From a virus, in IMG/VR virus record IMGVR_UViG_3300045974_000283, positions 96,001 through 160,000 of that record: a DNA stretch of 64,000 nucleotides. One strand, given 5' to 3'. Made by a program: the position numbers and the translations under genes. Positions 43,015 through 57,789 of the stretch are shown one piece after another. The notes below the pieces were generated by a model, which was not told where the DNA came from, ran no database searches, and saw only the letters and a program-made list of their open reading frames with translations. Within the stretch, counting starts at the first letter, position 1, and each line of letters starts with the position of its first letter.

Positions 43015-43929
43015 ATGACCAAGAACGCACTGAAGACCGTCGCTCAGCCGATCCCCTTCCCGCCCCACATGGAACAAGCGGCCTTCTGGATTCGGGAGCG
43101 GGAGAGCATCCGCCAGAAGAAGGACTCCGGCCTGCCGCCTCCGTGGACTCAAGATCCAATGATGGCGGGGACGAGATGGTGCAACGTGAGGCGGATGGAC
43201 GATAAGGTCAGCAAGTGGCTTCTCGATCACTTCTACGTCAAGAACCTTCCGCCAGCTCAGATGGCCGTCGGCGCGGCACTGGCTCGCCTCATCAATCGTC
43301 CTGAGACACTCATCCGCATGTGTCCCTCAGGTTATCAAGGCTTCGACAACGCCCGGTTCCGCAAGGTGCTCCGAGCCATGAAGGCTGCGAAGGAGCAGAT
43401 CTTCACCGGCGTCTACATCATCAACGGTGCGCAAGCCAACGGCCGCGACAAGTGGGAGCTCGTGCTCGACAACCTCGACGGGATGCGCCGCGCTCTCAAA
43501 GACAAGGACCTCGATCTGTCGTCCATGTCCGCAGTCCACACAAAGCTGATGGAGACCAAGGGTCTGGGCTCTTTCTTGGCAGGTCAAGTCGTTGCTGACC
43601 TGCGACACGTTCTGCCTCAAGGTCAATGGCTCGACCGCAACACTTGGGCTCCCGTCGGTCCCGGTTCCACGAAGGGCCTCAACTACGTGTTCAACACACC
43701 CGGTGAGCGCACGACGCAAGCTCGCTTCAACGAGCTTCTCCCGATCTATGTCAAGGCGGTTAATAAGATGCCCGGCATCGCTGCCATCGCCCGCGAACGG
43801 AAGCTCGAAGCGCATGACTACCAAAATACGCTATGTGAAATTTCCAAGTGGGCGCGCCTGCGTGAAGGCGGACGTTCGAAGAACAAGTATCAAGCGAAGC
43901 CGCCCGGTGAACAGCTGACCCTTCTGTGA
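43015..43929 (+). CDS. aGPT-Pplase / 5hmdU-DNA hypermodification family enzyme (HhH glycosylase-like fold)
   Basis: FWIRERESIRQKKDSGLPPPWTQDP..RWCNVRRMDDKVSKW; GLGSFLAGQVVADL; GPGSTKGL; YQNTLCEISKW. Confidence 0.85.
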   Translation: MTKNALKTVAQPIPFPPHMEQAAFWIRERESIRQKKDSGLPPPWTQDPMMAGTRWCNVRRMDDKVSKWLLDHFYVKNLPPAQMAVGAALARLINRPETLIRMCPSGYQGFDNARFRKVLRAMKAAKEQIFTGVYIINGAQANGRDKWELVLDNLDGMRRALKDKDLDLSSMSAVHTKLMETKGLGSFLAGQVVADLRHVLPQGQWLDRNTWAPVGPGSTKGLNYVFNTPGERTTQARFNELLPIYVKAVNKMPGIAAIARERKLEAHDYQNTLCEISKWARLREGGRSKNKYQAKPPGEQLTLL

Positions 43930-43935
43930 GGCATC

Positions 43936-44787
43936 ATGAGTGAACTAGCCATCTACATCCCGAGTCGGAGCCGCTTCGAGAAGTCCCTTACCTTGAAATA
44001 CTTGACTCCGAACTGGGACAAGGGACCGATCTATCTCGTGGTGCCCGCTGAGCAGCGCAAGGACTATCGGTTTCTCGCCAAACAATACGGCGTGACCATC
44101 CTGCCGTGCTCGGAGTCTGGCATCGCCTTGACGCGTCTGTTCTGCGGTGAACACGCCACGGACAAGTTCATCATGTTCGATGACGACCTCCGCTTCTCCT
44201 ACCGACCCAAGCGGAACAAGGAGACGGGCATCGACCAGACGGGCAAGAACGCTCAAGGACTAAGGCTTTACAAGGCCGAAGGCAGCCAGATCACGCGAAT
44301 GCTGACCATCGCTGAGACGCTGCTCGACAGATACGCTCACATCGGGGTCTCGCCTCGCGCGGGCAACCAATCGATGCCTCTGCCGATACGCGAGTGCGCT
44401 CGCCCGCTACGCGTCCTTGGCTACCGCAAGCGAGAGTTCCTCTCATGTGAACACGGCCGCGTCGCGATCATGGAAGATTTTGATGTCACACTTCAGTTGT
44501 TGACGCGTGGCTACAAGAACGCCTTGATCACGACGCATGTGAACGATCAGCTCGCGACGAACACGGAAGGAGGCTGCTCCGATTATCGCACCGAGAAACT
44601 TCACAACACGAATGTCAAGAAGATGCACTCCCTGTGGGGAGTGCCGATCACCAAGATCGTCGAGAAGAAGAACGTCAGTGCAGCGGCCTTGGCAGCGGGT
44701 CTCGCCGCCCGCAAAGAGCTGAACATCCAATGGATCAAAGCCTGGAAATCCTCCGGCAAAGACCTCAAACCCAGACTATCACGGTGA
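43936..44787 (+). CDS. GT-A glycosyltransferase, TET/JBP-associated (TAGT/GREB1-like) type
   Basis: IYIPSRSR, GIALTR, FIMFDDDL (DxD), MEDFDVTLQLLTRGY, GGCS..RT. Confidence 0.85.
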   Translation: MSELAIYIPSRSRFEKSLTLKYLTPNWDKGPIYLVVPAEQRKDYRFLAKQYGVTILPCSESGIALTRLFCGEHATDKFIMFDDDLRFSYRPKRNKETGIDQTGKNAQGLRLYKAEGSQITRMLTIAETLLDRYAHIGVSPRAGNQSMPLPIRECARPLRVLGYRKREFLSCEHGRVAIMEDFDVTLQLLTRGYKNALITTHVNDQLATNTEGGCSDYRTEKLHNTNVKKMHSLWGVPITKIVEKKNVSAAALAAGLAARKELNIQWIKAWKSSGKDLKPRLSR

Positions 44788-44790
44788 CCC

Positions 44791-45777
44791 ATGGACATCT
44801 ATCCTGTTGACCCTCCTTTCAGCCTTCAAGTCGAGCCCACTGAGGGCTGCTCGTTGGCTTGCTCATTCTGCGGCATCGCTTCTATCCGCGACAATGGAGC
44901 CAACGCCAACGAGGGCGTCCACGGCAAGAACTCCGCTCCCTACAAGCACATGGAGCGGGCCACCCTGATCCGACTGATGAAAGAAGTGAAGCGGCTCAAG
45001 TGGAATCCCCGCATCGAGTTCGCGATGCACGGTGAGCCTTCGATGCACCCTGACCTTCCTGGACTGGTCTCGGCGACCCGGAAGATTCTCGGCAATTCAG
45101 CTCACATCATGATCACCAGCAATGGCTCAGGTCTGACCACGCCTGAGAAGATCAACGCGTTGATAGCGGCTGGCCCGAACACGCTGGCGCTGGACGACTA
45201 CAAGCACGCCAAGTTCATGCCGAAGATCAAGGAGTTCGTGCGGACTCTTGGTCACACTGTGTTCGACTATCCGGCTGACAAGGAAGGCAACCCGCACCAT
45301 CGCAACAAGGGCAGTCGCATCGTCCTGATCAACGACATCAGTGAGAACACCGACGGCAACCATCAACTGACGAACCAAGGCGGAAGCTCGTTCGATGCTT
45401 TGACCGAGCCGCTCGTGCGTCGCTGCGCCAAGCCGTTCCGCGAGCTGTCTGTGCGCTGGGACGGCAATGTCGCCATCTGCTGTGACGATTGGGTCGGAGC
45501 CTACAAGATCGGCAACACGAACGAGCTGCCGCTCGACGAAATCTGGCTGCACCCGCGTTTCGAGGCGGCTCGCCGTCGCCTGTACGCCAAGGACCGCGAC
45601 TTCGGCCCGTGCAAGGGCTGCAACGTGAAGACCATGCGCGACGGCCTGCTCCCCGACAAGATGGGGAAGGGCGAGATGAAGGGCGTCTCTCCGGCCAGCG
45701 AGGCGCACCTGCGAGCGGCTCTGCGCGGTCGCATCTTCTCGATCAAGGAAGTCAAGGAAGTCAAGAGCGTCGCATGA
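44791..45777 (+). CDS. radical SAM enzyme with SPASM/twitch domain
   Basis: EPTEGCSLACSFC (CxxxCxxC), FAMHGEP, TSNG; C-terminal CAKPF...DGNVAICCDDW...IGN...IW...PCKGC. Confidence 0.92.
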   Translation: MDIYPVDPPFSLQVEPTEGCSLACSFCGIASIRDNGANANEGVHGKNSAPYKHMERATLIRLMKEVKRLKWNPRIEFAMHGEPSMHPDLPGLVSATRKILGNSAHIMITSNGSGLTTPEKINALIAAGPNTLALDDYKHAKFMPKIKEFVRTLGHTVFDYPADKEGNPHHRNKGSRIVLINDISENTDGNHQLTNQGGSSFDALTEPLVRRCAKPFRELSVRWDGNVAICCDDWVGAYKIGNTNELPLDEIWLHPRFEAARRRLYAKDRDFGPCKGCNVKTMRDGLLPDKMGKGEMKGVSPASEAHLRAALRGRIFSIKEVKEVKSVA

Positions 45778-46994
45778 AAACAGTCCTCGTCCTCGACCTG
45801 CTCTACTACGATGTTCATCCGACCGTCCACAAGAACGGTGTCACGCCCACCGCTCTTGAGGAGGCCTCCGTTCTGGCAGCGCACGGGTATCGGGTGATCT
45901 TCGGGTGCGCTGGCTCCAACTTGAACCGGCTGAAGAAAGCGTATCCTGAGGTCGAGTTCGTCAACCTGTTCCCGCAGACCTATGCCAGCATGCTCGATGA
46001 CGACAAGCACACGGTTGAGAGTTCTGGCTTCTCTCCGACGGTGGCAGCTAAGATCAAAGAGATCGTCATCAACGAGAAGATCTGGGTCATCTCGTGCTCG
46101 TCGATGCGTCAGCTGCTCAAGCATCTGGAGAAAGTAGACCTACCGTGCCCTGTCGTGTACACGATGCACTTCTGGCCTCAGCCAAATCTGATGTTCCACG
46201 CGAGCACGGTCGGTGGTCTGCTGGCGATCCGTGAGAACCCCAAGTTCTACATCTGTGCCAACACCGAGTTCACGATGGAGCAGCACCTTGAGCAGTCGCG
46301 GCTTGCTCACGCGAAGGGCTTGATTCGTGGTTCCGCTCTCGCGGCCTACGATCGCTTTGAGGGCAACTACTCGGACAGCTTCTGGAGACGCATGACCTGT
46401 AGCGACTCGGTGCCGGACATCCCAGTCTGCAACGTACCCTCCGGTCGCCTCATAGTTGCCAGTCGCACCCACAAGGCCAAGAACCCTGTCTTCTGCTCGG
46501 CAAGTCCCCTGATCGACTTCCACCTTCTGGTCTATGAGAACCCAGACAAGGACGCTCAAGCCATCCTGGACAAGATGGCGTCGGTGGGTGCCAGCGTGCA
46601 ACGCAACACCCCTCAGGTCAAGCTCTACAAGCTGATGGCGCGCAGCTCAGGGGTCGTGGTCTCATGCACGTTCGAGACCTTCGCTCGTACATCTTTCGAA
46701 GCGGCCTGCTCGGGCGTCCCTAGTCTGGTGTTCGTGGACAAGACAGGCAAACACGCCGTCCATTCCTGGAGCCAGCAAGCGGGCGTTCAGTTCGACTCGT
46801 TCCGTTTCGCCGACCTGAAAGACCGCAAGAACCGATTCAAGGCAGCGGTCGAGCATGTCGCCACAGGCTGGTCGTATGAGGAACGGCTGGAGCTCAAGCG
46901 GAGAGTTCGCAGCTACTTCAGCGCCAAGAACTTCGTGGCCGAGCGTACCTCTGCGTTCAAGGCGGCATGGTCCAAAATGAAAGCGTCCTCATGA
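45774..46994 (+). CDS. GT-B glycosyltransferase (GT4-like)
   Basis: N-terminal G-V...LAAHGYRVIF; C-terminal ETFARTSFEAACSGVP (ExF/GxxxxEA signature); ATGA-coupled. Confidence 0.8.
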   Translation: MKTVLVLDLLYYDVHPTVHKNGVTPTALEEASVLAAHGYRVIFGCAGSNLNRLKKAYPEVEFVNLFPQTYASMLDDDKHTVESSGFSPTVAAKIKEIVINEKIWVISCSSMRQLLKHLEKVDLPCPVVYTMHFWPQPNLMFHASTVGGLLAIRENPKFYICANTEFTMEQHLEQSRLAHAKGLIRGSALAAYDRFEGNYSDSFWRRMTCSDSVPDIPVCNVPSGRLIVASRTHKAKNPVFCSASPLIDFHLLVYENPDKDAQAILDKMASVGASVQRNTPQVKLYKLMARSSGVVVSCTFETFARTSFEAACSGVPSLVFVDKTGKHAVHSWSQQAGVQFDSFRFADLKDRKNRFKAAVEHVATGWSYEERLELKRRVRSYFSAKNFVAERTSAFKAAWSKMKASS

Positions 46995-48007
46995 TCAACA
47001 TCCTTCACTGTTCGCCGTGGCCCATAGGCGGCGCAACGTCGTACACAGTTCACCTCGCATCTGTCTTCGAGAAGACAGGTGTCCCTCACCGGATCATCCG
47101 CTTGGCAAAGAAGACTGAGCGCAAGTCCCGTGAGATGGGTTCCTACGGGGTTTCTTATGTCAACACCTCCGTCGAGGACGCGGCCAAGCTGGACGGCAAG
47201 TTCCTGCTCGCATCAGCGCCAACGGATGAAGACATGGGGCTGGCCTGCGCCAAGCTAGTCGAGCGTTCCCGTGGTGCCTACGTCTTCCACGATCCCAACG
47301 AGTTCGGCATGTACCCTCATTGGGACGCCAGAAAGCGATGGGGCTCTCGGTGCCGGGCAAGCGTCATCTGCATCCGCGAGCAGGGTCGTGTTCATATCCC
47401 CGAGGGCGTGTTCATTCCCCACCCATACGTCCGCACCTTCTCCAAGAAGACTCACAACGATGCCAAGACCAAGACGGCTGTCAGCGTCGCGCGGGTGAGC
47501 GGTGTCAAGAAAGCCCACTGGATCATCGAAGCGAACCAGACCCTACACGAAGCCGCCCGCGTTGACCTACGCGGAGAGGTCAATCGCATGTGGTGGAAGT
47601 TCACCATCGAGAAGAAGTTCCCCGGCATCCAACTGCCTGAGAACGCTGGCTTTCCCCGCATCATGGGTGCCGCTGCTGAGATCTGCAAACCCTATCAGCT
47701 GATGGTCGATCTGACCATCTTCAAAGAGGACGGCGGCGGAACTCAGTACGCGATGCTCGAAGCCATCGACGCGGGCGCTGTTCCCGTGATGACCAAGGAA
47801 TGGTGCTCGTATCCGGGCAAGGCCAGTGACCTCGTGATCCAGATCACCGACACGGATGGCCTGAAACGCCTCTTGAAGTCCTCACGGAAAGGCGTGCTCA
47901 TGAGCGACATCGACGGCCTTCGCCAGTCGAACTACGAGTATCTCGATTCCGTCCACTCACCCAAAGCGGTCAGCCGCGCCTACGTCTCAGCCCTGGAGTC
48001 TGCATGA
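46991..48007 (+). CDS. second GT-B glycosyltransferase
   Basis: HCSPWPIGGATSY loop; ARVSGVKK; DGGGTQYAMLEAIDAGAVPV. Confidence 0.8.
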   Translation: MINILHCSPWPIGGATSYTVHLASVFEKTGVPHRIIRLAKKTERKSREMGSYGVSYVNTSVEDAAKLDGKFLLASAPTDEDMGLACAKLVERSRGAYVFHDPNEFGMYPHWDARKRWGSRCRASVICIREQGRVHIPEGVFIPHPYVRTFSKKTHNDAKTKTAVSVARVSGVKKAHWIIEANQTLHEAARVDLRGEVNRMWWKFTIEKKFPGIQLPENAGFPRIMGAAAEICKPYQLMVDLTIFKEDGGGTQYAMLEAIDAGAVPVMTKEWCSYPGKASDLVIQITDTDGLKRLLKSSRKGVLMSDIDGLRQSNYEYLDSVHSPKAVSRAYVSALESA

Positions 48008-48630
48008 AAGTTCTCGTCACGGGAAACCCCCGAAGTGGCACCCTGTCCCTCAGTCTGACGCTGCGCAAAGCCGGACTCGATGTCGGCCACGAGCGCATGG
48101 GCAAGGACGGTACGGTGTCGTGCTTCTTCTTCAAGCAAGTCGAATACTACCCCCGGGAAGGTGGAACCGAGAACCGTCACCTGACCGACGGCAAGGATGA
48201 CAACTTCGATGAAGCCGAGTTCGACTTCGCTTACCATCTGGTGCGCAATCCGCTCAAGTGCATCCCATCTATGCAGAAGATCGTCAACCGTCGCCACCGA
48301 CAGTGGATACGGGACATCGGCATCTGCGAGTGGGACCCCAAGAACCAGTCGAACATAGAGTGGTGCGCCTTGGCGTGGTATCACACGAATCTGTACATCG
48401 AGCAGAACCTGAACTTCCCTCGGCTGCGGGTGGAGACCCTCTTGAAAGACTGGCCCAATGAACTGTGCCCGCGTCCAACCGAGATCAAACACTCGCACAA
48501 GAGCTCGGGCTTTCGCAAAGCTGCACCGATCACTCCGGCTCAGCTCACGGATATATCGGGAGCGGCCCTTTCCAAATCCATCCTCGACATGGCGCGCCGC
48601 TACGGCTACGCCAAGTCCGACCTTCAGTAG
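48004..48630 (+). CDS. sulfotransferase-fold protein
   Basis: VLVTGNPRSGT (5'-PSB loop), VGHE, HLVRNP (3'-PB motif), AWYHTN; ATGA-coupled to the GT-B gene. Confidence 0.75.
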   Translation: MKVLVTGNPRSGTLSLSLTLRKAGLDVGHERMGKDGTVSCFFFKQVEYYPREGGTENRHLTDGKDDNFDEAEFDFAYHLVRNPLKCIPSMQKIVNRRHRQWIRDIGICEWDPKNQSNIEWCALAWYHTNLYIEQNLNFPRLRVETLLKDWPNELCPRPTEIKHSHKSSGFRKAAPITPAQLTDISGAALSKSILDMARRYGYAKSDLQ

Positions 48631-48647
48631 TTCAACCCGGAGTTCAC

Positions 48648-49448
48648 ATGACATCACCTTCACAATTAGTTTTTCCAAAAGCGACCTACCGTAGTGTTCG
48701 CGGGGTCATACCCGATAGAGTTTTCACTGTCACCGAGGTCAGGCCGAACGAAAGTTCTCCGAGCGCATCCATCATCTGTTACACCGACGGCCAAACAGGC
48801 ACCTGGATGATGGACCAGAGATCTTTCCTTGAGGAATTCGTTCTGCTCAAGCCTTACGAACCGGAGCCGCCTTTCAAGGTCACCGCTGGCACCCTCTACC
48901 GCCACACCAAGTCCGGCCTCCTTGGTTCCCTGTGGTCCTTGAACGGCTACCGAGCGCTCTTCGAAGTCATGCTTGTGGAGGGTGACGTTCGGTTGCGCCG
49001 GGTCTCGGTCGACCGAGAGCTCCAAGCGAACTTCGAGTCTGGAGTCGACGAGTTCCGGGACCAGACACTGAACCTCCTGTACCCGCCCGCGTCGATCGTG
49101 ATCTTCACGCACCTGTCGTTCCTCCAGTCGTTCACGCCCGTCCAGTTCAAACTTCAGCGGCCTGAGGACCCCAAGCCGAAGCCCCCAAGTTCTGGCCGAC
49201 CGGAGTGGCTGATCCGCATCGACGTCGAGGCAGGCGAGCTGAGCGTCAAGATGCAGAAGCTCACCACGTTCCTGTGTGAAGTTCACCTGCTTCCCGAAGG
49301 CCGCAAGCCCACGGCTTCACAAGAACTGCTGATGCGCCTGCAACTGGACGCCATGCGCCTCTACTACCAGATCCTGCTGAATCGTCTCAAGGACGGTGAG
49401 GACGCGATGGCCGACGCTCAGGTCGTTCACCATATAGGCAACGCATGA
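48648..49448 (+). CDS. hypothetical multi-domain protein with C-terminal helical hairpin
   Basis: RBS GGAG; C-terminus ELSVKMQKLTTFL...LMRLQLDAMRLYYQILLNRL. Confidence 0.7.
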   Translation: MTSPSQLVFPKATYRSVRGVIPDRVFTVTEVRPNESSPSASIICYTDGQTGTWMMDQRSFLEEFVLLKPYEPEPPFKVTAGTLYRHTKSGLLGSLWSLNGYRALFEVMLVEGDVRLRRVSVDRELQANFESGVDEFRDQTLNLLYPPASIVIFTHLSFLQSFTPVQFKLQRPEDPKPKPPSSGRPEWLIRIDVEAGELSVKMQKLTTFLCEVHLLPEGRKPTASQELLMRLQLDAMRLYYQILLNRLKDGEDAMADAQVVHHIGNA

Positions 49449-49774
49449 CTGATGCTGTCCAACCCCCAGAAGAAACCAAGCCGCCTCTGACCGAGTTTCA
49501 ACGCGGCGCTCGGGCGATGTTCGACTACTTCCATATCCGGGCGGCGAACAACTGGCATGGCAACCCGAAGGTCCAGGAGCAGTGCGCCAAGGAAAACACC
49601 CTGCTCCTGAGCTGGGTTGAGGACGCCCTTGAGAGTGTGGATCCCGCCATCCACGCCGAGTGGAAAACTCTCCAGGAAGCCACCAAGAGCGCCTATCACC
49701 AAGGGTATCTCGACGCCTTGGCAACGAAACAGTCCCACAATGCTCCACCGACAACAAAGGCGTCCGTCGTATGA
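49445..49774 (+). CDS. hypothetical protein
   Basis: ATGA overlaps at both ends. Confidence 0.75.
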   Translation: MTDAVQPPEETKPPLTEFQRGARAMFDYFHIRAANNWHGNPKVQEQCAKENTLLLSWVEDALESVDPAIHAEWKTLQEATKSAYHQGYLDALATKQSHNAPPTTKASVV

Positions 49775-50220
49775 CCCCGCACAAACAACTCAACCTCCAC
49801 AAGCCGCTTGAAGGCCAGATCGGCGACTGCTTCCGCACGGTCATTGCCTGCTTGCTCGACCTGCACCCTTCGGACGTACCTCACTTCTACCAAGAGGTCT
49901 GGCACGAGCCCGATGCTGCTCAGACTGCTGAACGCGAACTTCGCAAGTTCTTGCGGCACTATGACCTGGACTTCATCGAGGTTGCCTACAAGGACACCTT
50001 GCTGAACGTCATGGAAGCGCAAGCGATCATGAACCCCGGCATCTACTACCTGCTGACAGGAAACTCAGCGAACGGCGTCGGTCACGTGGTCATCTGCTGC
50101 GGAGACCAGATCGTCCACGACCCGGCCATTGACAATTCCGGTATCGTTGGCCCTTCCGACACCGGGAACTATCACATCACGTGGCTCGTGCCAAGTCTCA
50201 TGCGCCGCCTTGCCTGTTAA
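49771..50220 (+). CDS. hypothetical protein with papain/C39-like Cys-His pattern
   Basis: GDCFRTVIACLL...VPHF...GHVVICCGDQIVHDP. Confidence 0.7.
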   Translation: MTPHKQLNLHKPLEGQIGDCFRTVIACLLDLHPSDVPHFYQEVWHEPDAAQTAERELRKFLRHYDLDFIEVAYKDTLLNVMEAQAIMNPGIYYLLTGNSANGVGHVVICCGDQIVHDPAIDNSGIVGPSDTGNYHITWLVPSLMRRLAC

Positions 50221-50257
50221 TGGCCCCGCTTCACAACCCTCACTGAAGATTTCCATC

Positions 50258-51457
50258 ATGAACAAACCGACCCCGGTCACCGATCTCAACGGCGCGATCA
50301 CGCTCGCAGCCACAAGCCCGGACAGCCATCTGTTCCGGCTGCTCTACCTTCTCCAGTCCGAACAGTATCACGGCGTCGTGGCCCAGACCGAGAGCCGCAA
50401 CGGCCCCGTCCTGCGCTTCACGGTGCCTGTCATCACTTCGTGGATTTGCCCCGATCAGCGCGTGAGCTTCTGGGACAAGCGCGATGCCAATCCATTCTTC
50501 CACTACATGGAAGCGATCTGGATGTTGGCGGGCCGCGACGACGTTGCCTTCCCGTCCTACTTTGCCAAGCAGATCAAGCAATTCTCCGACGACGGTGAGA
50601 CCTTGAACGGTGCCTACGGCTATCGCTGGCGCAACTTCTTCGACAACGGCAACTTCGATCAACTCGAAGACGCCATCGCTCAGCTCAAGGCGAATCCCTC
50701 GTCGCGTCGCGTCATCCTGCAGATGTGGCACGCGGTCGCTGATCCGCAGAGCGCCGCTGAGGGCTCGAAGGACGTCCCCTGCAATATCTCGGTGATGTTC
50801 GATGCCGTCAACGGCAAGCTGAACATGACCGTCGTCTGCCGCTCCAACGACATCATCTGGGGTGCCACGGGCGCGAACGTGGTCCACTTCTCGATTCTGC
50901 ACGAGTACGTCTCGGCGGCTGCGGGCCTGCGCGCTGGCACCTATCATCAGGTGAGCAACAACCTTCACGTCTACACCGAGTTCCCGGTCTCGAAGCCGCT
51001 GCTGGAAGCCACGGACGATCCGACACCGGAAGAACTGCGCGGTGACTATCCGGGCGAGGCGCTCGACCTGTACGCGGCGCGTGAGAACGGTCTTTTCCCG
51101 ATGCCGCTGTTCCGTTCGAACGAAGTGGTCGATGCCGACGAGTTCGATGATGTCCTGCTGGATACAGACTTCCTGGACGCGATTCGGGAAGAGTTCGACG
51201 AGGATAGTGTTTCGCGTCAGCAGAACATCCAAGCGTACATTGACGCCTTGAAGGAAATGGCGATTACCGGAGCTGGATGGCGGCAACACGCCAACGTGAT
51301 GCAGGCTGCTTTCATCATGCACCGCGAGCTTGGTCAAACCTCTGAGGCCATCGAGTACCTCAAGGAAGCCAACATCGGCCCCGACTGGAAGCTCGCATGT
51401 GTCAACTGGCTCCAACGCCGTCTGGACGCCGCCAAGGCAAAGGAGATCGCAGCATGA
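50258..51457 (+). CDS. thymidylate synthase-superfamily enzyme, probable dUMP hydroxymethylase (5hmdUMP synthase)
   Basis: SRNG, ANPFFHYMEAIWMLAG, GAYGYRWR, SRRVILQMW, catalytic KDVPCN, RSNDIIWGATGAN (Asn suggests dUMP specificity), NNLHVY. Confidence 0.85.
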   Translation: MNKPTPVTDLNGAITLAATSPDSHLFRLLYLLQSEQYHGVVAQTESRNGPVLRFTVPVITSWICPDQRVSFWDKRDANPFFHYMEAIWMLAGRDDVAFPSYFAKQIKQFSDDGETLNGAYGYRWRNFFDNGNFDQLEDAIAQLKANPSSRRVILQMWHAVADPQSAAEGSKDVPCNISVMFDAVNGKLNMTVVCRSNDIIWGATGANVVHFSILHEYVSAAAGLRAGTYHQVSNNLHVYTEFPVSKPLLEATDDPTPEELRGDYPGEALDLYAARENGLFPMPLFRSNEVVDADEFDDVLLDTDFLDAIREEFDEDSVSRQQNIQAYIDALKEMAITGAGWRQHANVMQAAFIMHRELGQTSEAIEYLKEANIGPDWKLACVNWLQRRLDAAKAKEIAA

Positions 51458-52149
51458 AAGACCGCTTGATTGGCTTGGGTCTCCCGCACGACCCCGAGTT
51501 CGCCGCTCGGGTTCAGTCATTCACGGCTGTCCACGCTCATGTTCGTGGCTGCGCGACCAAGCGCTACCACACTGAGCCCACGCTGCAGAACGAGACGGTC
51601 GGCGCTCACGTCGGCTTCATGGTCGGTGCGGCCTTCATCATCTACGACACGCCTTCGCTGGCGCTACTCAAGGCCATCAGCCTGCACGATCACATGGAAG
51701 CCATCACTGGCGACATGCCCGCGCCGATGAAGGTCCGGAGGCCCGAGCTGAAAGCCATCATCGACGAACTGGAGATGGAGTTCCACGGCGAGTCGAAGCT
51801 GCCCGGCTGGCCCATGCTTGACGCGCACGAAGAACGGCAACTGAAGGTCTTGGACCGCCTGTCAGGAGTCGCCTGCGCCTCGCAAGAACTTCGCATGGGC
51901 AACTGGAGCGTCCACCACGTTCTGGGTGCCTTCTGCGGTTACTTCGCGACGCTGAAGCCCGAATGGAAGGAGCTCTACTTCTTCGAGGGTCTTCTGGACA
52001 CCGCACCGAATCGCAACCGGGCTGTCCCCGACGACACAAAGCGTCTGTTCGAGGCGATGGTCAAGAGCGTCCGTGAGGCGGCGTCTCCCAAATACCGCAC
52101 GAACCCCAAGCCGGACGGCATGTCTTCCCTCGGTCCAATCGCGAGCTGA
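51454..52149 (+). CDS. HD-domain 5'-deoxynucleotidase (YfbR-like)
   Basis: RYHT...ETVGAH...LHDHMEAITGDMPAPMK...LKVLDRL; ATGA-coupled to the TS homologue. Confidence 0.85.
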   Translation: MKDRLIGLGLPHDPEFAARVQSFTAVHAHVRGCATKRYHTEPTLQNETVGAHVGFMVGAAFIIYDTPSLALLKAISLHDHMEAITGDMPAPMKVRRPELKAIIDELEMEFHGESKLPGWPMLDAHEERQLKVLDRLSGVACASQELRMGNWSVHHVLGAFCGYFATLKPEWKELYFFEGLLDTAPNRNRAVPDDTKRLFEAMVKSVREAASPKYRTNPKPDGMSSLGPIAS

Positions 52150-52673: not shown

Positions 52674-53135
52674 ATGTCGCTCACCGCTGCCCAGATTCTC
52701 AAGTCCCTCGCCCGAGTGCCACCCGGCAAAGACGGCGAGGACCGTTTCGATCGTGCCACCCGCGTGAAGGTAACCGAGCTCAAGCGCGGCAAGGTCAAGA
52801 CGAACGGCAACATCCGCTTCCTGTGCAAGACCAAGACCCCGGAACACGTCAAGGGTCGCCTCATCGTGGAGACTTACGTCACCTCGGTCGAGTTCAAGAT
52901 GCAGGGCAAGATGGCGGGCAAGTACGTCATTGTCTCCTGCGGATGCCCGGACTTCTGCTTCATGTGGGAATACAACCTCACGCAGAAGGATGCGTCCATG
53001 ATCAAGTACGGCAACGGCGAGGCCCCCACGAAGCCGATTCCTATCGGCATGTGCAAGCATCTGATCCGCACCTTCGATCAGCTCGTGACAAAGGCTCAAG
53101 TCGACTCCAAATTCGTACTCCCGGTGACCACATGA
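52674..53135 (+). CDS. SWIM zinc-finger protein
   Basis: VSCGCPDF...MCKH (CxC-x(n)-CxH); RBS GGAG. Confidence 0.8.
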   Translation: MSLTAAQILKSLARVPPGKDGEDRFDRATRVKVTELKRGKVKTNGNIRFLCKTKTPEHVKGRLIVETYVTSVEFKMQGKMAGKYVIVSCGCPDFCFMWEYNLTQKDASMIKYGNGEAPTKPIPIGMCKHLIRTFDQLVTKAQVDSKFVLPVTT

Positions 53136-54109
53136 GCAATAACTACGCACACAGCACCAACTTCGCCGGGATGAAGAATGTCGCAGAGCAGTTCGACTCG
53201 AACCTGACCTCCGCACAGTATCTTCAGGCGTTGGACAGCCTCCTGTTCCGCGCCTACTCGCCGATCATAATGGCGACCAACTCATTCGACGCCCTCGTGG
53301 GTCAGCTCATCGGCTGGCAAGAAACTACACGCAAGCGCAAGGTCTCGTTCCAGCATCGGGACGAGTTCATTCCCATCGCACTGACTTGGCTGTGTCTACC
53401 GTCTCGGGAAGAGAAGGCCGCACGGGCTGCGGATCTGCTGCTGGACCGGGCTGCTCTAGCTGAGTTCGTCGAAACCTTCATAAGCTCGATGGATCGATTC
53501 GAGCAGGCGTCCAACCTCCTGCTGACCGACAAGGACGGCAACCCGTGTTCCATCGATGAGCACATGGCCTTCGCCCACTCCGTCGTGGACTCGTGTGGTG
53601 CGCCATCCATAGGTGTTCTGCTAAACGCCATCACCGAGAGCAAGCTCTACATCAGCCGTTATCACAAGTTCGCGGAAGCCATCATGACGCGGTTCACCCG
53701 CCTCTGCCTGATGACTGCTCAGCGCGACTACGTGAACGTCTTCGGGCACTCCATTGATTTGAACGACGCTGTCCAGGTCTACATGATGGTGGCCCGCCGC
53801 GCCATCGACAAGTGTGACCCGCGCCAAGGCGTCCTCACCTCGCACATCCAGTCCTGGCTCAAGTCCGGTCGCTCCATCATCGCCGACCAACAGAAAGGCG
53901 ACGGCAGCGCCATCACGCTGGATGACACCGAGGAAGAACCTTACGAGGGCTCCGAGGCGGAAGCGGTCAGTCGCAGCGAACATTCAAGCCGCGTCAGCGA
54001 GATCGCCCGTCTTGTTGACCCCGAAGGCTACGGTCGAGCTTGGCTCGGCCTGAACGAATCACCAACCTGGATACGCTCACAAATGGAAGCCCTCACCACG
54101 CATCAGTAA
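53132..54109 (+). CDS. sigma70 region-2-like protein (putative phage sigma factor)
   Basis: LNDAVQVYMMVARRAIDKCDPRQGVLTSHIQSWL parallels the region 2.2-2.3 pattern DLxQ..L.RA.DKFDP..G....Y...W; ATGA-coupled to the SWIM gene. Confidence 0.65.
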   Translation: MSNNYAHSTNFAGMKNVAEQFDSNLTSAQYLQALDSLLFRAYSPIIMATNSFDALVGQLIGWQETTRKRKVSFQHRDEFIPIALTWLCLPSREEKAARAADLLLDRAALAEFVETFISSMDRFEQASNLLLTDKDGNPCSIDEHMAFAHSVVDSCGAPSIGVLLNAITESKLYISRYHKFAEAIMTRFTRLCLMTAQRDYVNVFGHSIDLNDAVQVYMMVARRAIDKCDPRQGVLTSHIQSWLKSGRSIIADQQKGDGSAITLDDTEEEPYEGSEAEAVSRSEHSSRVSEIARLVDPEGYGRAWLGLNESPTWIRSQMEALTTHQ

Positions 54110-54848: not shown

Positions 54849-55769
54849 ATGCAAGCTCCACTCCCACTGAAAGAGCTCTACGAAGCTCAGGTCGCGCTCA
54901 ACGCCAAGACCCTCCCGGCCTTCCTGCCCTGCGGCGCGGCAAAGAAAGTCTTCATCGATGCGCGTGACCAATCTATCCGCCTCCCGGTAGACTTCAAGCA
55001 AGCCATGCAGCGCGAGCTCGATGAGCTGGCCGTCGTGCTGCCCTTCGGCCACTGGAAGGATACCGCCAAGCAGATGCGCGCCATCAGCTTCAACGACTTC
55101 CAAAATCTCCTCCTGGAACTGGTGGACATTTTCCACTTCCTGATGAGCGAGAACTTGGTCGAAGTGGCTTCGGTCTGCAACGACGGTCAACCTGATCTTG
55201 ACGTGATCGTCAAGCACTCGGTGGCTCGCCACACAGAGGCCCTCCTGTTCCTGGCACCCCGTGACCCGTCGATCACGACCTTCGCAGACGTCTGGCACAA
55301 GGTGAACGAGAACGGCCAGATGAACATCGGCGACTTCTGCACACTCGCCAACCTGAACACTGAGGTGAGCAGTTTCAGCGCTCGGCTGGCCCCCGGTGCC
55401 ACGCTCGAATCGGAGCGCGTGATCTACAACTTCCACACCCTCCTGAGCATGTTCGGCTTCTCGAACGATGACCTGCTCACGGTCTATCGCGGCAAGGGCG
55501 TTCTCAACGAGTTCCGCCAGTGCAACGGCTACCGCGACGGCAGCTACATCAAGCAATGGAAGGGCGCTGGAACTTCCACCATCGAGGACAACGTGGTGAT
55601 GCTCGGCATGATCAGCCGGAGCATTCCGGCCTTCCTGCCCGATGGTGTCGAGCCCTACGACTTCTCACCCGGCGAACTGTTCATGATGTTGGACGCCGAG
55701 TACAAGGCGATGAAGGCTGTCCTGGAGTCGAAGAGCCGCACCTTCAAAACTTCAGACGCCCACTCTTGA
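54849..55769 (+). CDS. dut: dimeric all-alpha dUTPase
   Basis: QVALN, ELDEL...HWK, LELVDIFHFLMS, YRGKGVLNEFRQCNGYRDGSYIKQW, EDN. Confidence 0.88.
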   Translation: MQAPLPLKELYEAQVALNAKTLPAFLPCGAAKKVFIDARDQSIRLPVDFKQAMQRELDELAVVLPFGHWKDTAKQMRAISFNDFQNLLLELVDIFHFLMSENLVEVASVCNDGQPDLDVIVKHSVARHTEALLFLAPRDPSITTFADVWHKVNENGQMNIGDFCTLANLNTEVSSFSARLAPGATLESERVIYNFHTLLSMFGFSNDDLLTVYRGKGVLNEFRQCNGYRDGSYIKQWKGAGTSTIEDNVVMLGMISRSIPAFLPDGVEPYDFSPGELFMMLDAEYKAMKAVLESKSRTFKTSDAHS

Positions 55770-56223: not shown

Positions 56224-57789
56224 ATGGCTACAGCAACCAAACGAAAAGCATCTGGCAAGGACTTCGACGACGTCCCGACGAGTGGCTACGGGGACAAGTC
56301 CCGCAAGCCCACTGAGCAGGTCCAGATGCTCAACACGCCTGACGGCAAGTGGACTCTCTTCCGCCCGATCGGCCCCGCTTACAGCTACGCGGGTCACTGG
56401 ATCACGGTGACGAAGAAGGACGGCAAAATTTCGCAGTTCTACATGGCCTGCGCGGCATGGGATCCCGAGAGTGTCCAACGGCAAGGCGGCAACGGCGCGG
56501 AACACTGCAAGTTCTGCGCACTGGAAGCGTTCTACAAAGAGAACGACACGCCACGGGACGACCGGAAGTCGCGATTCACGGTGGACCACTACGCGAACGT
56601 CATCTCTCGTGTCGAGCAGAAGCGCAAGCCGGAAGACGCCTACATCTCCGAGGACGAGGCCGCAACGGGCTTCAAGACTCTAGACTCCGACTCCTGGACC
56701 CCGGTGCGCGTCGTGCGCATGACCGACAACGTGGTGCGGAAGGTCAAGGGCATCCGCGAGCTGAACGTTCATGAAGACCCCGAGACCGGCGACTCGCAAA
56801 CCTATCCGGCTTCCCACAAGAAGTTTGGCTGTGACATTCAGCTGAAGTACACGGCCAAGAATCCGCCTGCAACTCGGTACGAGACCAATCGCGGCAACCC
56901 CACACCGCTGAAGAAGTCCGAAGCTGCCTACCTGATCTGGGACTTGAGCGACCTGACCGACTACCCGACCACGGCCGAGATGGCTGCTGAGTTCGACTCG
57001 TGGGCTGCACGGAACCATGTCGTGATCCCCGGCCTGACCAAGAAGGTCGCAGGCAAGGGCAAGCCTGCCCCGGTCGATGACGAGGACAGCGAGGACGAAG
57101 ACGAAGTTCCGAAGGCCAAAGCCAAGCGCAAACCTGCTCCGGTGGCCGACGAGTTCGATGATGACGGTGAAGATGAGGCTCCGGCTCCCAAGGCAAAAGC
57201 CAAGAAGAAGCCTGCGGTCGTTGAAGATGACGACGAGTTCGGCAATGATGACGACGAAGACGAAGCGCCTCCTCCCAAGGCGAAAAAGCCCGCTCCAAAG
57301 CGTCAAGCTGAACCCGAAGACGACTTCGAGGACGATGATGACACTCCTCCTCCGAAAGCCAAGGCCAAACCCGCATCCAAGAAACCGGCACCCGTCGAAG
57401 ACGACGATGACGACTTCGAAGACGATACGCCTGCTCCGCCCAAGGCCAAGAAGCCCGCTGCGAAGAAACCTCCTGTCGTCGAGGACGACGATGACTTCGA
57501 GGAAGAGGACGCTCCGCCTCCGAAGGCCAAGGCGAAGCCCGGCAAGAAGCCTCCGGTGGTCGAGGATGATGACGATGACTTCGAGGATGACACGCCGACT
57601 CCACCCAAGGCCAAGAAGCCCGCTGCCGCTCCTGCCAAGAAGAAGCCTGCTCCAGTGGAAGACGACGACTTCGAGGAAGAGGACGAGCCGCCTGCCCGCA
57701 AGCCTGCGGCGAAAGCCAAGCCTGCGGCTGTCGCGGCCAAGAAGAAGCCGCGTCCTCCCGTCGACGATGACGATGAGTTCGAAGACTGA
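56224..57789 (+). CDS. single-stranded DNA-binding protein (T4 gp32-like) with very long acidic/basic repeat tail
   Basis: FRPIGP...HW...CAAW...HCKFC...YANVI...GCDIQLK; about 250-aa tail of KAKKPA / EDDDDFE blocks; located in the recombination module. Confidence 0.75.
   Translation: MATATKRKASGKDFDDVPTSGYGDKSRKPTEQVQMLNTPDGKWTLFRPIGPAYSYAGHWITVTKKDGKISQFYMACAAWDPESVQRQGGNGAEHCKFCALEAFYKENDTPRDDRKSRFTVDHYANVISRVEQKRKPEDAYISEDEAATGFKTLDSDSWTPVRVVRMTDNVVRKVKGIRELNVHEDPETGDSQTYPASHKKFGCDIQLKYTAKNPPATRYETNRGNPTPLKKSEAAYLIWDLSDLTDYPTTAEMAAEFDSWAARNHVVIPGLTKKVAGKGKPAPVDDEDSEDEDEVPKAKAKRKPAPVADEFDDDGEDEAPAPKAKAKKKPAVVEDDDEFGNDDDEDEAPPPKAKKPAPKRQAEPEDDFEDDDDTPPPKAKAKPASKKPAPVEDDDDDFEDDTPAPPKAKKPAAKKPPVVEDDDDFEEEDAPPPKAKAKPGKKPPVVEDDDDDFEDDTPTPPKAKKPAAAPAKKKPAPVEDDDFEEEDEPPARKPAAKAKPAAVAAKKKPRPPVDDDDEFED
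57050..57789 (+). repeat. coding repeats encoding PPKAKAKKP-APVEDDDDDFE units
   Basis: At least six gacgacgacttcgag-type blocks, all in frame. Confidence 0.85.

Follow-up and report, generated by a model that had tools for sequence, protein, structure and literature searches.

A candidate glycosyltransferase-type thymidine hypermodification locus with a sulfotransferase gene in an uncultured phage

Introduction

What would a phage make with three glycosyltransferases (GTs), a radical SAM enzyme and a sulfotransferase encoded beside a predicted dUMP hydroxymethylase? These genes occur in the window, the 64,000-nucleotide stretch of DNA analysed here, taken from a 178 kb IMG/VR record of an uncultured giant phage. 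The genome is estimated to be 74% complete and is distant kin of the Ralstonia jumbo phage phiRSL1. The sequence-only reading proposed that thymine is replaced by 5-hydroxymethyluracil (5hmU) and then hypermodified. This interpretation is supported by the hydroxymethylase signature and by comparative genomics; the final chemical product is inferred.

Organization of the locus

Six genes (g1-g6) are open on the + strand from 43015 to 48630, and the tailoring genes are translationally coupled along with g1. Start and stop codons overlap in ATGA at 45774, 46991 and 48004, and the two intergenic gaps are 6 nt (43929/43936) and 3 nt (44787/44791). A thymidylate-synthase homolog begins 1.6 kb after the end of g6 and is followed by genes for an HD-domain protein and a dUTPase-family enzyme. 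The sequence-only reading had described this layout, and both the six-gene run and the downstream set are confirmed. Profiles, folds or motifs bear out each of its family assignments. It omitted three small coupled ORFs on the + strand (48648-49448, 49445-49774 and 49771-50220) between g6 and the hydroxymethylase gene. The first ORF matches a crAss001_48-like C-terminal domain, the sole hit for the three, and they have no homologs among the related loci. The linkage described in the sequence-only reading is not due to chance: these genes are found together again in 11 other phage loci.

Nucleotide-pool genes

The thymidylate-synthase homolog (50258..51457, + strand, 399 aa; PF00303; phrog_5131, E 5.6e-100) is a predicted dUMP 5-hydroxymethylase. 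It is most closely related to phiRSL1 ORF230 (42% identity) and is 38-40% identical to the enzymes of PaMx11/M6-like phages, whose DNA contains 5hmdU-derived bases (PMC8989533). Cys146, Asp169 and Asn177 are invariant in the window and all 12 sulfotransferase loci, as is an Asp at the L143 position. Under published residue criteria (PMC13326640), these four positions predict a uracil substrate and a hydroxymethyl product. Assignment as a 5-hydroxy-dCMP synthase is rejected, since Asn177 and Asp169 are kept. A search for a TET/JBP or C5-methyltransferase route to hydroxymethylpyrimidine found none.

The hydroxymethylase gene is ATGA-coupled at 51454 to a gene for an HD-domain (YfbR-like) deoxynucleotide phosphohydrolase (51454..52149, + strand; PF12917, 31.4 bits). 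This protein matches dNMP phosphatase families among the phrogs and is a homolog of PaMx11 gp52, and its gene is kept after the synthase homolog in most loci. A dimeric dUTPase-family (dUTPase_2) nucleotide pyrophosphatase is encoded at 54849..55769 (+ strand; PF08761, E 3.7e-11); its match to NCBIfam dUTPaseEpsil (E 2.5e-17) is below the family cut-off.

In the 178 kb record, at an estimated 74% completeness, no genes for NDP-sugars or PAPS are seen, and the host must therefore supply both donors. Searches of the record with PF18748 and an iterated HMM find no 5-hmdU kinase, and amino-acid:DNA transferase (ADDT) and APS kinase are likewise not found in it.

HMUDK_hel and related loci

The first gene of the run, g1 (43015..43929, + strand, 304 aa; PF18723, E 2.6e-42), encodes a stand-alone HMUDK_hel protein. 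The PF18723 family is labelled aGPT-Pplase clade 1 in deposited phage records, the name used by Lee et al., and is a constant hallmark of 5hmU-DNA modification clusters. Homologs of g1 include PaMx11 gp50 (approximately 31% identity), YuA gp14, phiW-14 gp72 and phiRSL1 ORF231. The family has an invariant L-C-E motif (C274/E275 in g1).

In 12 phage loci, the sulfotransferase family of g6 lies beside HMUDK_hel and the hydroxymethylase. Ten of the 12 loci found through the sulfotransferase also have HMUDK_hel and the synthase homolog, and two more come from a set of 80 HMUDK_hel loci. Where HMUDK_hel is present, the sulfotransferase directly adjoins a GT gene in 10 of 12 loci, at least one GT is encoded in 11 of 12, and none of the 12 contains a 5-hmdU DNA kinase or ADDT. 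In locus L013, no GT is present in the 1.1 kb left upstream of HMUDK_hel before the contig ends; an APS-kinase-like gene is beside the sulfotransferase and a PIG-L sugar deacetylase is on the contig. Sugar-donor genes (APH-like kinase, nucleotidyltransferase) occur in L005, L010, L015, L016 and phiRSL1.

Among the 80 HMUDK_hel loci, 31 contain a P-loop kinase (four of these also a GT) and 35 contain a GT without a kinase. A GT with neither kinase nor sulfotransferase is present in 33 of the 80 (33 of the 35 GT-type clusters). The window locus belongs to this large glycosyltransferase-type class. Because clusters of this type are without 5-hmdU kinase and amino-acid:DNA transferase, M6/ViI chemistry does not apply to them. 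Synteny ties the GTs, sulfotransferase and radical SAM enzyme to HMUDK_hel and the hydroxymethylase in many unrelated phages.

Glycosyltransferases

The GT-A enzyme g2 (43936..44787, + strand, 283 aa, FDDD motif) belongs to the TAGT family (PF20691, E 4.5e-15, 56.6 bits with a cut-off of 27.5; phrog_842, E 7.5e-36). Its homologs are present in 9 of the 11 other sulfotransferase loci and as phiRSL1 ORF237/234/233. The GT-B enzyme g4 (45774..46994, + strand, 406 aa) is GT4-like: its Atlas model has a TM of 0.72-0.76 to GT4/BshA clusters over approximately 350 residues, and PF00534 is present in its feature neighbours. No homolog of g4 occurs in the other sulfotransferase loci.

The second GT-B enzyme, g5 (46991..48007, + strand, 338 aa; AF2 model pLDDT 93.9), is a conserved partner of the sulfotransferase, with 49 homologs and a presence in 7 of the 12 sulfotransferase loci. 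It has no homolog among 50,697 deposited phage records. Foldseek matches it to GT4 enzymes (E 1e-9) and to T4 AGT-DNA complexes (TM 0.68-0.72). In the VIA search, T4 DNA alpha-glucosyltransferase is nominally the best structural match (1ya6, Z 24.3, 316 residues aligned, rmsd 3.5), with other GT4 enzymes tied within 1 Z.

These enzymes could have a target other than DNA. If so, the pool genes and g1 alone would concern DNA, and the GTs, sulfotransferase and radical SAM enzyme would modify host envelope glycans (a superinfection block), virion proteins or a small molecule. Glycans or metabolites are indeed the usual substrates of BtrN-like enzymes, sulfotransferases and GT4-like GT-B enzymes. 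The sulfotransferase family is also large (3273 representatives at E<=1e-3), has one member joined to a GT2 domain in a bacterial-type GT2-TPR fusion, and is present in two phage records (L014 and L017) with neither HMUDK_hel nor the synthase homolog. A target outside DNA is nevertheless very unlikely. The tailoring genes are coupled to g1, and a dozen unrelated phages have them between the HMUDK_hel and hydroxymethylase genes, within replication modules (DNA polymerase, helicase, nucleases). TAGT enzymes are known DNA glycosyltransferases (10.1101/2023.12.21.572611), and the nominal best matches of g5 are DNA-bound complexes.

Sulfotransferase

By motifs and predicted fold, g6 (48004..48630, + strand, 208 aa) is a true PAPS-type sulfotransferase. 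It has a 5'-PSB loop (PRSGT, residues 9-13), H29-E30 and a 3'-PB motif (R81-x7-S89). An alignment of 21 homologs shows no variation in the two PAPS-binding motifs or the putative His-Glu base. The AF2 model has a pLDDT of 92.5, and its best seven VIA matches are all sulfotransferases (Z 8.0-10.1), followed by kinases at Z 6-8. Homologs of g6 carry PF13469/PF17784, and none is found among the 50,697 deposited phage records. Gene adjacency and the analogy with phiRSL1 are what suggest the predicted acceptor, a glycan on 5hmU.

Sulfate could instead be an activating group. Sulfotransferases have the P-loop kinase fold, as the kinase matches reflect, and CurM-type sulfotransferases, in which sulfate serves as a leaving group, are among the best structural matches of g6. 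In an unlikely alternative, g6 acting with g1 would sulfate the 5-hydroxymethyl of 5hmU in DNA and so stand in for the ATP-dependent 5-hmdU DNA kinase. Loss of the sulfate ester would follow, possibly after attack of the conserved g1 Cys on C6, a nucleophile would be added, and the GTs would decorate the resulting product or other 5hmU residues. The absence of 5-hmdU kinase, ADDT and APS kinase from the record is consistent with this, and sulfotransferase and kinase are never together in the loci examined. A swap of partners is plausible because the window g1 groups with two kinase-type loci in a quick tree (SH-aLRT 99). The L-C-E motif of g1 is similar to the Cys/Glu pair that is essential in clade 2 enzymes, whose mechanism proceeds through a C6 thiol adduct and an exocyclic methylene (PMC8989533). 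A g1+g6 complex prediction lends weak support with a score of 0.42 (best control 0.00); its runs agree in at least 1% of contacts, and the partner pLDDT is at least 85. Among solved complexes 58 of 80 attain this mark, as do 2 of 110 mismatched pairs, but with scores of 0.60 or below only 7 of the 80 attain it, together with both passing mismatches. By the statement of the tool itself, a score of this level is more often wrong than right.

Several observations argue against activation by sulfate. Since 33 of the 80 loci have a GT with neither kinase nor sulfotransferase, HMUDK_hel needs no anionic-group transferase and the sulfotransferase is an apparent add-on to glycosylation clusters. No transferase for the displacement step accompanies it, and in most loci it adjoins GT genes, not g1. 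The profile comparison of HMUDK_hel with PaMx11 ADDT is not significant (E 0.13). The phiRSL1 enzyme is a Sulfotransfer_2 protein, and this is a carbohydrate-sulfating family.

It is also doubtful that 5hmU is glycosylated without any sulfation of DNA, with g6 inactive or acting elsewhere (on a free sugar nucleotide or protein) and a neutral mono- to trisaccharide as the product. The 33 of 35 GT-type clusters without any sulfotransferase would fit, as would the lack of a PAPS-supply gene in the window genome. The invariant motifs and putative base of g6 and its close adjacency to GT genes speak against it. So does the presence in like clusters of two unrelated sulfotransferase families, twice with an APS kinase (phiRSL1 and L013).

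Radical SAM enzyme

The g3 protein (44791..45777, + strand, 328 aa) is a radical SAM enzyme with a SPASM/twitch auxiliary-cluster domain (PF04055, PF13186), and its translation contains CxxxCxxC. Among PDB sequences it matches only the C-terminal domain of BtrN (E 1.5e-6). Orthologs in L004, L008 and L011 are 37-44% identical, and the enzyme is confined to GT-containing clusters, whether a sulfotransferase is present or absent. The sequence-only reading drew a parallel with the radical SAM enzyme of phage M6. The enzyme family stands and the M6 parallel does not: g3 does not match the M6 gp53 isomerase at E<=1e-3, and its only relatives are BtrN-like.

Proposed pathway

Most likely, the conserved gene set replaces thymine with 5hmU and then adds sugars in DNA; these sugars are probably sulfated. 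The full reading, O-glycosylation of 5hmU in DNA with sulfation of the glycan and its tailoring by the radical SAM enzyme, has about an even chance of being correct. We would likewise give equal weight for and against the locus being the tailoring cassette and nucleotide-pool module of a GT-type thymidine hypermodification pathway in a phiRSL1-like jumbo phage.

In the first step, judged from active-site residues and relatives, the synthase homolog would convert dUMP to 5-hydroxymethyl-dUMP. The HD phosphohydrolase and dUTPase-family enzyme would deplete dTMP/dTTP and dUTP, and 5hmU would therefore replace T during replication. Family, fold and synteny suggest that g2 and/or the T4-AGT-like g5 would then O-glycosylate 5hmU on DNA with host NDP-sugars, and that g4 may lengthen the chain to at most three sugars. 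For g6, the motifs, fold and neighbouring genes point to transfer of sulfate from host PAPS to a sugar hydroxyl. In the weakest step, g3 may oxidise or rearrange a sugar carbon. In all such clusters g1 is the constant partner of the hydroxymethylase; its probable part is the handling of 5hmU in DNA on behalf of whatever tailoring enzymes a cluster has.

The convergence of the two sulfotransferase families, of the window type and of phiRSL1, counts for this pathway. Against it count an HMUDK_hel protein for which the pathway has no specific step, a g4 that is not kept elsewhere, L013 without a visible GT, the sulfotransferases of L014 and L017 without HMUDK_hel or synthase homolog, and the missing NDP-sugar and PAPS genes. 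If the pathway is correct, it would yield a sulfated glycosyl-5hmU, bulky and anionic, which would block host nucleases. The sequence-only reading had taken the combination of three GTs and a sulfotransferase in such a locus as one not known to be characterised; the literature searched contains no description of the combination. Sulfated, sugar-decorated 5hmU would be a DNA modification not yet described.

Comparison with known systems

The thymidine hypermodification systems of M6, ViI, PaMx11, phiW-14 and SP10 (PMC5889632, PMC8989533; Lee et al. 2018, 2021) share with the window pre-replicative 5hmdU from a thymidylate-synthase-family dUMP hydroxymethylase, a neighbouring HD protein, an adjoining aGPT-Pplase clade 1 / HMUDK_hel gene and, as predicted for the window, tailoring on the DNA polymer. 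Unlike them, the window has no P-loop 5-hmdU DNA kinase, amino-acid:DNA transferase, or PLP, FAD and acetyltransferase enzymes. It has instead three GTs, a sulfotransferase and a BtrN-like radical SAM enzyme.

The nearest cultured relative is phiRSL1 (NC_010811), with the cluster at ORF230-238. Identity is 42% for the synthase homolog, 43% for a RecA-like protein, 34% for SSB and 31% for a sigma-like protein, and the order of these genes is shared. Both clusters contain HMUDK_hel, TAGT glycosyltransferases, a sulfotransferase and the hydroxymethylase. The phiRSL1 block has three TAGT genes, Sulfotransfer_2 (76.8 bits), its own APS_kinase (57.1 bits) and sugar-activation genes, whereas it is without the GT-B and radical SAM enzymes of the window. 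Its sulfotransferase is unrelated to the g6 family, and the clusters are convergent. The literature searched gives no account of phiRSL1 DNA chemistry.

Glycosylation of 5hmC by T4 alpha/beta-glucosyltransferases and TET-associated TAGT clusters (Burke 2021; Pyle 2023/2024) shares the TAGT GT-A and AGT-like GT-B enzymes. These systems add mono- to trisaccharides to 5-hydroxymethylpyrimidine in DNA, and such GTs are often near thymidylate synthase (Pyle et al.); the Pyle paper does not mention a sulfotransferase or radical SAM enzyme. The predicted acceptor in the window differs in being 5hmU made before replication, given that the synthase homolog retains Asn177 and that the search for TET/JBP or C5-methyltransferase routes found none.

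Kinetoplastid base J (beta-D-glucosyl-hydroxymethyluracil, described in PMC13229309) shares glucosylated 5hmU in DNA. Its glucosyl transfer is by a GT-A of the TAGT lineage. JBP dioxygenases form its 5hmU after replication, and it bears one neutral glucose; in the window, a dUMP hydroxymethylase would supply 5hmU, with additional sugars, sulfate and radical chemistry predicted.

In RB69 and DLP3 (arabinosylated 5-hydroxycytosine) and Rhizobium phage RL38J1 (hexosylated 5hoC), a thymidylate-synthase homolog likewise supplies a hydroxylated pyrimidine that several phage GTs extend (PMC13326640). Those enzymes have Asp at 177 and Asn at 169, whereas the window enzyme has Asn177 and Asp169.

Gene Organization

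The locus is a new form of phage thymidine hypermodification, for which the chemistry is predicted. Its six genes are open on the + strand as the sequence-only reading had described, with ATGA overlaps at 45774, 46991 and 48004. They encode an HMUDK_hel protein (g1, 43015–43929), a TAGT GT-A glycosyltransferase (g2, 43936–44787), a radical SAM/SPASM enzyme (g3, 44791–45777), two GT-B glycosyltransferases (g4, 45774–46994; g5, 46991–48007) and a sulfotransferase (g6, 48004–48630). A 6 nt gap precedes g2 and a 3 nt gap precedes g3. Upstream of the cluster is a 5'-3' exonuclease gene. The linkage described downstream is also present: the thymidylate-synthase homolog (50258–51457) shares an ATGA overlap at 51454 with the gene of a YfbR-like HD protein, and a dUTPase_2 gene starts at 54849. 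Three small coupled ORFs (48648–50220), the first of which ends in a crAss001_48-like domain, lie between g6 and the synthase homolog. Homologs of these ORFs are absent from related clusters.

The window covers bases 96001–160000 of its parent record, which is 177,837 bp long with an estimated completeness of 74%, and G+C is approximately 59% all along the window. There is no DNA-level match to deposited phages (megablast, 9.1 kb region as query). By gene order and protein similarity, the window is distantly related to the Ralstonia jumbo phage phiRSL1, with identities of 42% for the synthase homolog, 43% for the RecA-like protein, 34% for SSB and 31% for the sigma-like protein. Two ORFs of 153 aa and 325 aa (52674–54109), both without a Pfam match, are homologous to phiRSL1 ORF226 and ORF224; the latter bears the annotation RNA polymerase sigma factor. 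In the SSB-like protein (56224–57789), the first 270 residues are 34% identical to phiRSL1 ORF222. Its C-terminal half, approximately 250 residues, is built of repeat units that are acidic or rich in lysine, proline and alanine (PPPKAKAK..., DDDDDFED).

Predicted Hydroxymethylase and Nucleotide Pool

The synthase homolog matches PF00303 (85.2 bits). In an alignment with E. coli ThyA, it keeps Cys146, Arg166, Ser167, Asp169, Asn177, His207 and Tyr209 (ThyA numbering). Three residues ahead of the catalytic Cys, it contains an Asp where ThyA has Leu143, and the full motif is D-V-P-C-N ... R-S-N-D ... G-A-N. Asn177 is associated with uracil specificity and Asp with cytosine specificity, an acidic residue at 143 accompanies hydroxymethyl rather than methyl products, and 5-hydroxy-dCMP synthases are marked by Asn at 169 (PMC13326640). 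Because of its residues at 177, 143 and 169, the homolog reads as a dUMP hydroxymethylase. Retention of Asn177 rules out a dCMP hydroxymethylase, and retention of Asp169 rules out a 5-hydroxy-dCMP synthase. A plain thymidylate synthase is ruled out by the Asp at the Leu143 position.

The enzymes of phiRSL1 and of PaMx11/M6-like phages are closest to this protein, and the DNA of the PaMx11/M6-like phages carries 5hmdU-derived bases (PMC8989533). The HD protein is similar to PaMx11 gp52 and to families of dNMP phosphatases. Its presence alongside the dUTPase-family enzyme fits the classical route by which 5hmU phages exclude T. No match to a TET/JBP dioxygenase (PF12851) is found in the 178 kb record.

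The HMUDK_hel Protein

Translated g1 matches PF18723 (HMUDK_hel) over its full length (E = 2.6e-42, 145.5 bits), and this HMUDK_hel/aGPT-Pplase clade 1 gene stands near the hydroxymethylase gene. A homolog in a deposited Glutamicibacter phage record is labelled aGPT-Pplase clade 1. PaMx11 gp50, which adjoins the kinase gp49, is also a g1 homolog. The earlier placement of g1 in the aGPT-Pplase family is correct at the level of the family, but g1 is not the clade 2 amino-acid:DNA transferase (ADDT; PF18724). In M6/PaMx11, the aGPT-Pplase pair has been described as paralogous, and M6 gp55 is dispensable in lysate reconstitutions (PMC8989533). From gene position, we infer that M6 gp55 is the clade 1 protein. 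HMUDK_hel is apparently dispensable in vitro in M6 and is constant in both cassette types described below.

A search for the P-loop 5-hmdU DNA kinase (PF18748) across the 177,837 bp record, estimated to be 74% complete, gives nothing at E ≤ 1. Searches of this record with PaMx11 gp49 and with an iterated HMM from 33 kinases also return no match. The sole match to ADDT (PF18724, formerly aGPT-Pplase clade 2) scores 12.1 bits and is elsewhere in the genome, and an iterated ADDT HMM finds nothing.

HMUDK_hel proteins contain an invariant L-C-E-x-x-K near the C-terminus (g1 residues 273–278). It resembles the E-x-x-L-C of the PaMx11 amino-acid:DNA transferase, in the same relative place. A profile comparison of the L-C-E motif with the ADDT catalytic Cys/Glu gives E = 0.13 (hhalign).

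Glycosyltransferases and the Radical SAM Enzyme

The folds and families proposed from sequence for g2 through g6 are all borne out. The g2 protein matches the TAGT GT-A family PF20691 (56.6 bits against a cut-off of 27.5, residues 5–208) and phrog_842, and its translation contains an FDDD motif of the DxD kind. Its partner is the thymidylate-synthase homolog rather than a TET/JBP dioxygenase. Neither g4 nor g5 has a Pfam match, and a Pfam domain is present in none of the 49 g5 homologs. The Atlas model of g4 is a GT-B fold that aligns with GT4 enzymes at TM 0.72–0.76. A search of IMG/VR with the single g4 protein as pattern gives no match.

The AF2 model of g5 (pLDDT 93.9) is also a GT-B fold. 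In Foldseek, it matches GT4 enzymes at an E of about 1e-9 (1.3e-9) and the DNA-bound T4 alpha-glucosyltransferase (AGT) at TM 0.68–0.72. Five T4 AGT entries top the VIA ranking for g5 (Z 23.8–24.3, 311–319 residues aligned; the best, Z 24.3, covers 316 of 338 residues); other GT4 enzymes score within one Z unit of them, which amounts to a tie. The g5 family profile has no significant match among PDB sequences, and no g5 homologs are found by tblastn in 50,697 deposited phage records.

The g3 protein contains radical SAM (PF04055, 46.8 bits) and SPASM (PF13186, 49.7 bits) domains, with the cluster motif C20-x3-C24-x2-C27 and a Cys-rich auxiliary domain. Its sole solved sequence relative is BtrN, a sugar-type dehydrogenase. 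In the 50,697 phage records, g3 matches only six Campylobacter phage records, some of them annotated as BtrN (tblastn, E ≤ 1e-3). The M6 isomerase is absent among these matches, which rules out a glycinyl-thymine isomerase of the M6 gp53 type.

Sulfotransferase

In the VIA ranking of 48,161 chains against the g6 AF2 model (pLDDT 92.5), ranks 1–7 are all sulfotransferases. Their Z scores fall from 10.1 (168 residues aligned, rmsd 3.7) to 8.0, followed by P-loop kinases with approximately 110 residues aligned. Foldseek returns only weak rows (E 0.05–0.3). The protein has no Pfam or NCBIfam match at E ≤ 0.01, and its family profile has no significant match among PDB sequences. Several homologs match PF13469/PF17784 (Sulfotransfer_3/4), mostly weakly. 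Three elements are invariant or nearly so in the 21 close homologs: a P-R-S-G-T loop (residues 9–13), H29-E30 and R81-N-P-x5-S89. We take these to be the 5'-phosphosulfate loop, the candidate catalytic base and the 3'-phosphate motif, respectively.

No g6 homologs are found by tblastn in the 50,697 deposited phage records. In IMG/VR, the single protein used as a pattern finds no match, and relatives were recovered with the g6 alignment only. In metagenomes, the family is large, with 132 representatives at E ≤ 1e-30, rising to 3273 at E ≤ 1e-3. Searches of the 178 kb record for genes of PAPS supply and of NDP-sugars find none.

One 66 kb phage record, rated complete, has two sulfotransferase domains in tandem in a 446 aa protein. 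A nearby 729 aa protein has a radical-SAM-like/DUF1848-like part at its N-terminus, fused to a TAGT domain (both within L017:9284–13640). Neither a thymidylate-synthase homolog nor a TET/JBP gene is found in this record.

Sulfotransferase Loci in Other Phages

Contigs with g6 homologs and a profile-derived IMG/VR scan yielded 11 loci beyond the window, and HMMs built from the loci were run on all ORFs. The phages that carry these loci differ considerably in size and backbone. HMUDK_hel and the synthase homolog are on the same strand within a few kb in nine of the 11 and in the window, and all 12 synthase homologs carry the hydroxymethylase signature. A family A polymerase, an SNF2 helicase and a PD-(D/E)XK nuclease are upstream in many loci. 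The g5-type GT-B is present in seven loci and a second GT-B type in three (L008, L011 and L049). Most loci contain TAGT, and most contain the HD gene. The g3-type radical SAM enzyme is found in four loci. An APH-like kinase and a nucleotidyltransferase, presumably serving sugar activation, are also found in four.

Twelve loci contain both a sulfotransferase and HMUDK_hel. Kinase and ADDT genes are absent from all of these. One or more glycosyltransferases (GT) are encoded in 11, and in 10 a GT gene directly adjoins the sulfotransferase gene. One locus (L013:596–3022) has the order PIG-L-like deacetylase, HMUDK_hel, 127 aa APS-kinase-like P-loop protein, sulfotransferase, synthase homolog, HD. 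It was not accepted as a GT-free cluster of HMUDK_hel and sulfotransferase only; the contig ends 1.1 kb upstream and a PIG-L sugar deacetylase is present. That the tailoring enzymes act on a target other than DNA is unlikely, given that their genes are coupled to g1 and recurrently placed between HMUDK_hel and the hydroxymethylase.

In phiRSL1, the cluster ORF230–238 (NC_010811, 163104–171498) joins a hydroxymethylase and HMUDK_hel (ORF231) to three TAGT genes, an APH-like protein and a nucleotidyltransferase. Also encoded there are a Sulfotransfer_2 enzyme (ORF232, 76.8 bits) and a member of the APS_kinase family (ORF238, 57.1 bits; cut-off 21.1). The phiRSL1 sulfotransferase is unrelated to g6, and therefore two families have been recruited independently to like clusters. 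The APS-kinase-like gene of L013 stands between HMUDK_hel and the g6-type sulfotransferase. These putative PAPS-supply genes in phiRSL1 and L013 argue for genuine sulfuryl transfer.

Cassette Types

An IMG/VR scan seeded with HMUDK_hel gave 536 relatives, and the analysis covered the best 80 loci. Among these 80, the P-loop kinase is present in 31 (14 of them with ADDT; four with a glycosyltransferase), a glycosyltransferase without the kinase in 35 (two with a sulfotransferase), and neither is detected in 14. The GT type, approximately 35 of these 80 clusters, is uncharacterised. In the loci analysed, the sulfotransferase is confined to GT-type clusters. From this class split, therefore, HMUDK_hel and the hydroxymethylase are a constant core to which a kinase-type or GT-type cassette is attached.

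In the HMUDK_hel tree (quick maximum-likelihood search, midpoint root; labels sensitive to where contigs end), partner type switches many times. At least five changes of sulfotransferase label are required by well-supported branches. The window copy clusters with two kinase-type loci (SH-aLRT 99, quick tree). The two cassette types have been swapped many times onto the core.

A minimal trio of TAGT, HMUDK_hel and synthase homolog is very common among the best 80 of the 536 loci, and it predicts base-J-like glycosyl-5hmU in many uncultured phages. Rare mixed clusters (L056, L085 and L086) have the order synthase homolog, HMUDK_hel, P-loop kinase, second-type GT-B. One locus (L050) contains two copies of HMUDK_hel, one by a kinase and ADDT and the other by TAGT.

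The main rival to a sulfated glycan is that sulfate, instead of phosphate, activates the 5-hydroxymethyl carbon. In its favour are the kinase missing from the record and the L-C-E motif of g1. The predicted g1 and g6 complex lends it weak support, scoring 0.42 against 0.00 for the best control; a pass of this kind is more often wrong than right if the pairing was not already likely. Two points speak against this rival: among the best 80 of 536, 33 GT-type clusters have neither kinase nor sulfotransferase, and no displacement transferase accompanies the sulfotransferase.

Predicted Modification and Known Systems

The locus pattern best fits a pathway in which 5hmU in DNA is first O-glycosylated and the glycan is then sulfated by the sulfotransferase. 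The radical SAM enzyme, found only in GT-containing clusters, may provide a sugar-tailoring step. It is quite possible, if a little short of probable, that 5-hydroxymethyluracil bears a sulfated oligosaccharide in the virion DNA of this phage, of metagenomic relatives with the module and, through convergence, of phiRSL1. Such a base, made by a phage-specific sulfotransferase family acting on the polymer and altered by the radical SAM enzyme, would bring a sulfate ester into the known natural DNA modifications for the first time. In the literature searched, no account of phiRSL1 DNA modification chemistry was found; phiRSL1 is in culture, and the prediction is therefore directly testable.

Whether a phage escapes a given nuclease defence, restriction and CRISPR included, depends on its DNA hypermodifications. 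These modifications are also a source of enzymes for DNA labelling and sequencing chemistry. The literature searched contains no paper joining sulfotransferase, phage and hypermodification and nothing relevant on glycosylated 5hmU in phages. Pyle et al. noted GT-A and GT-B genes near thymidylate synthases and mention neither a sulfotransferase nor a radical SAM enzyme (10.1101/2023.12.21.572611).

If the prediction is true, three enzyme types would be new to DNA: a DNA-glycan sulfotransferase, a BtrN-like radical SAM enzyme and a 5hmU-specific GT-B. In known thymidine hypermodifications, amino acids or polyamines are added via a phosphorylated intermediate. Known DNA glycans are on cytosine derivatives, or are a single glucose on 5hmU in trypanosomes. 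A sulfated, radical-SAM-tailored glycan on 5hmU would be a new chemical class, that of anionic, sulfated DNA.
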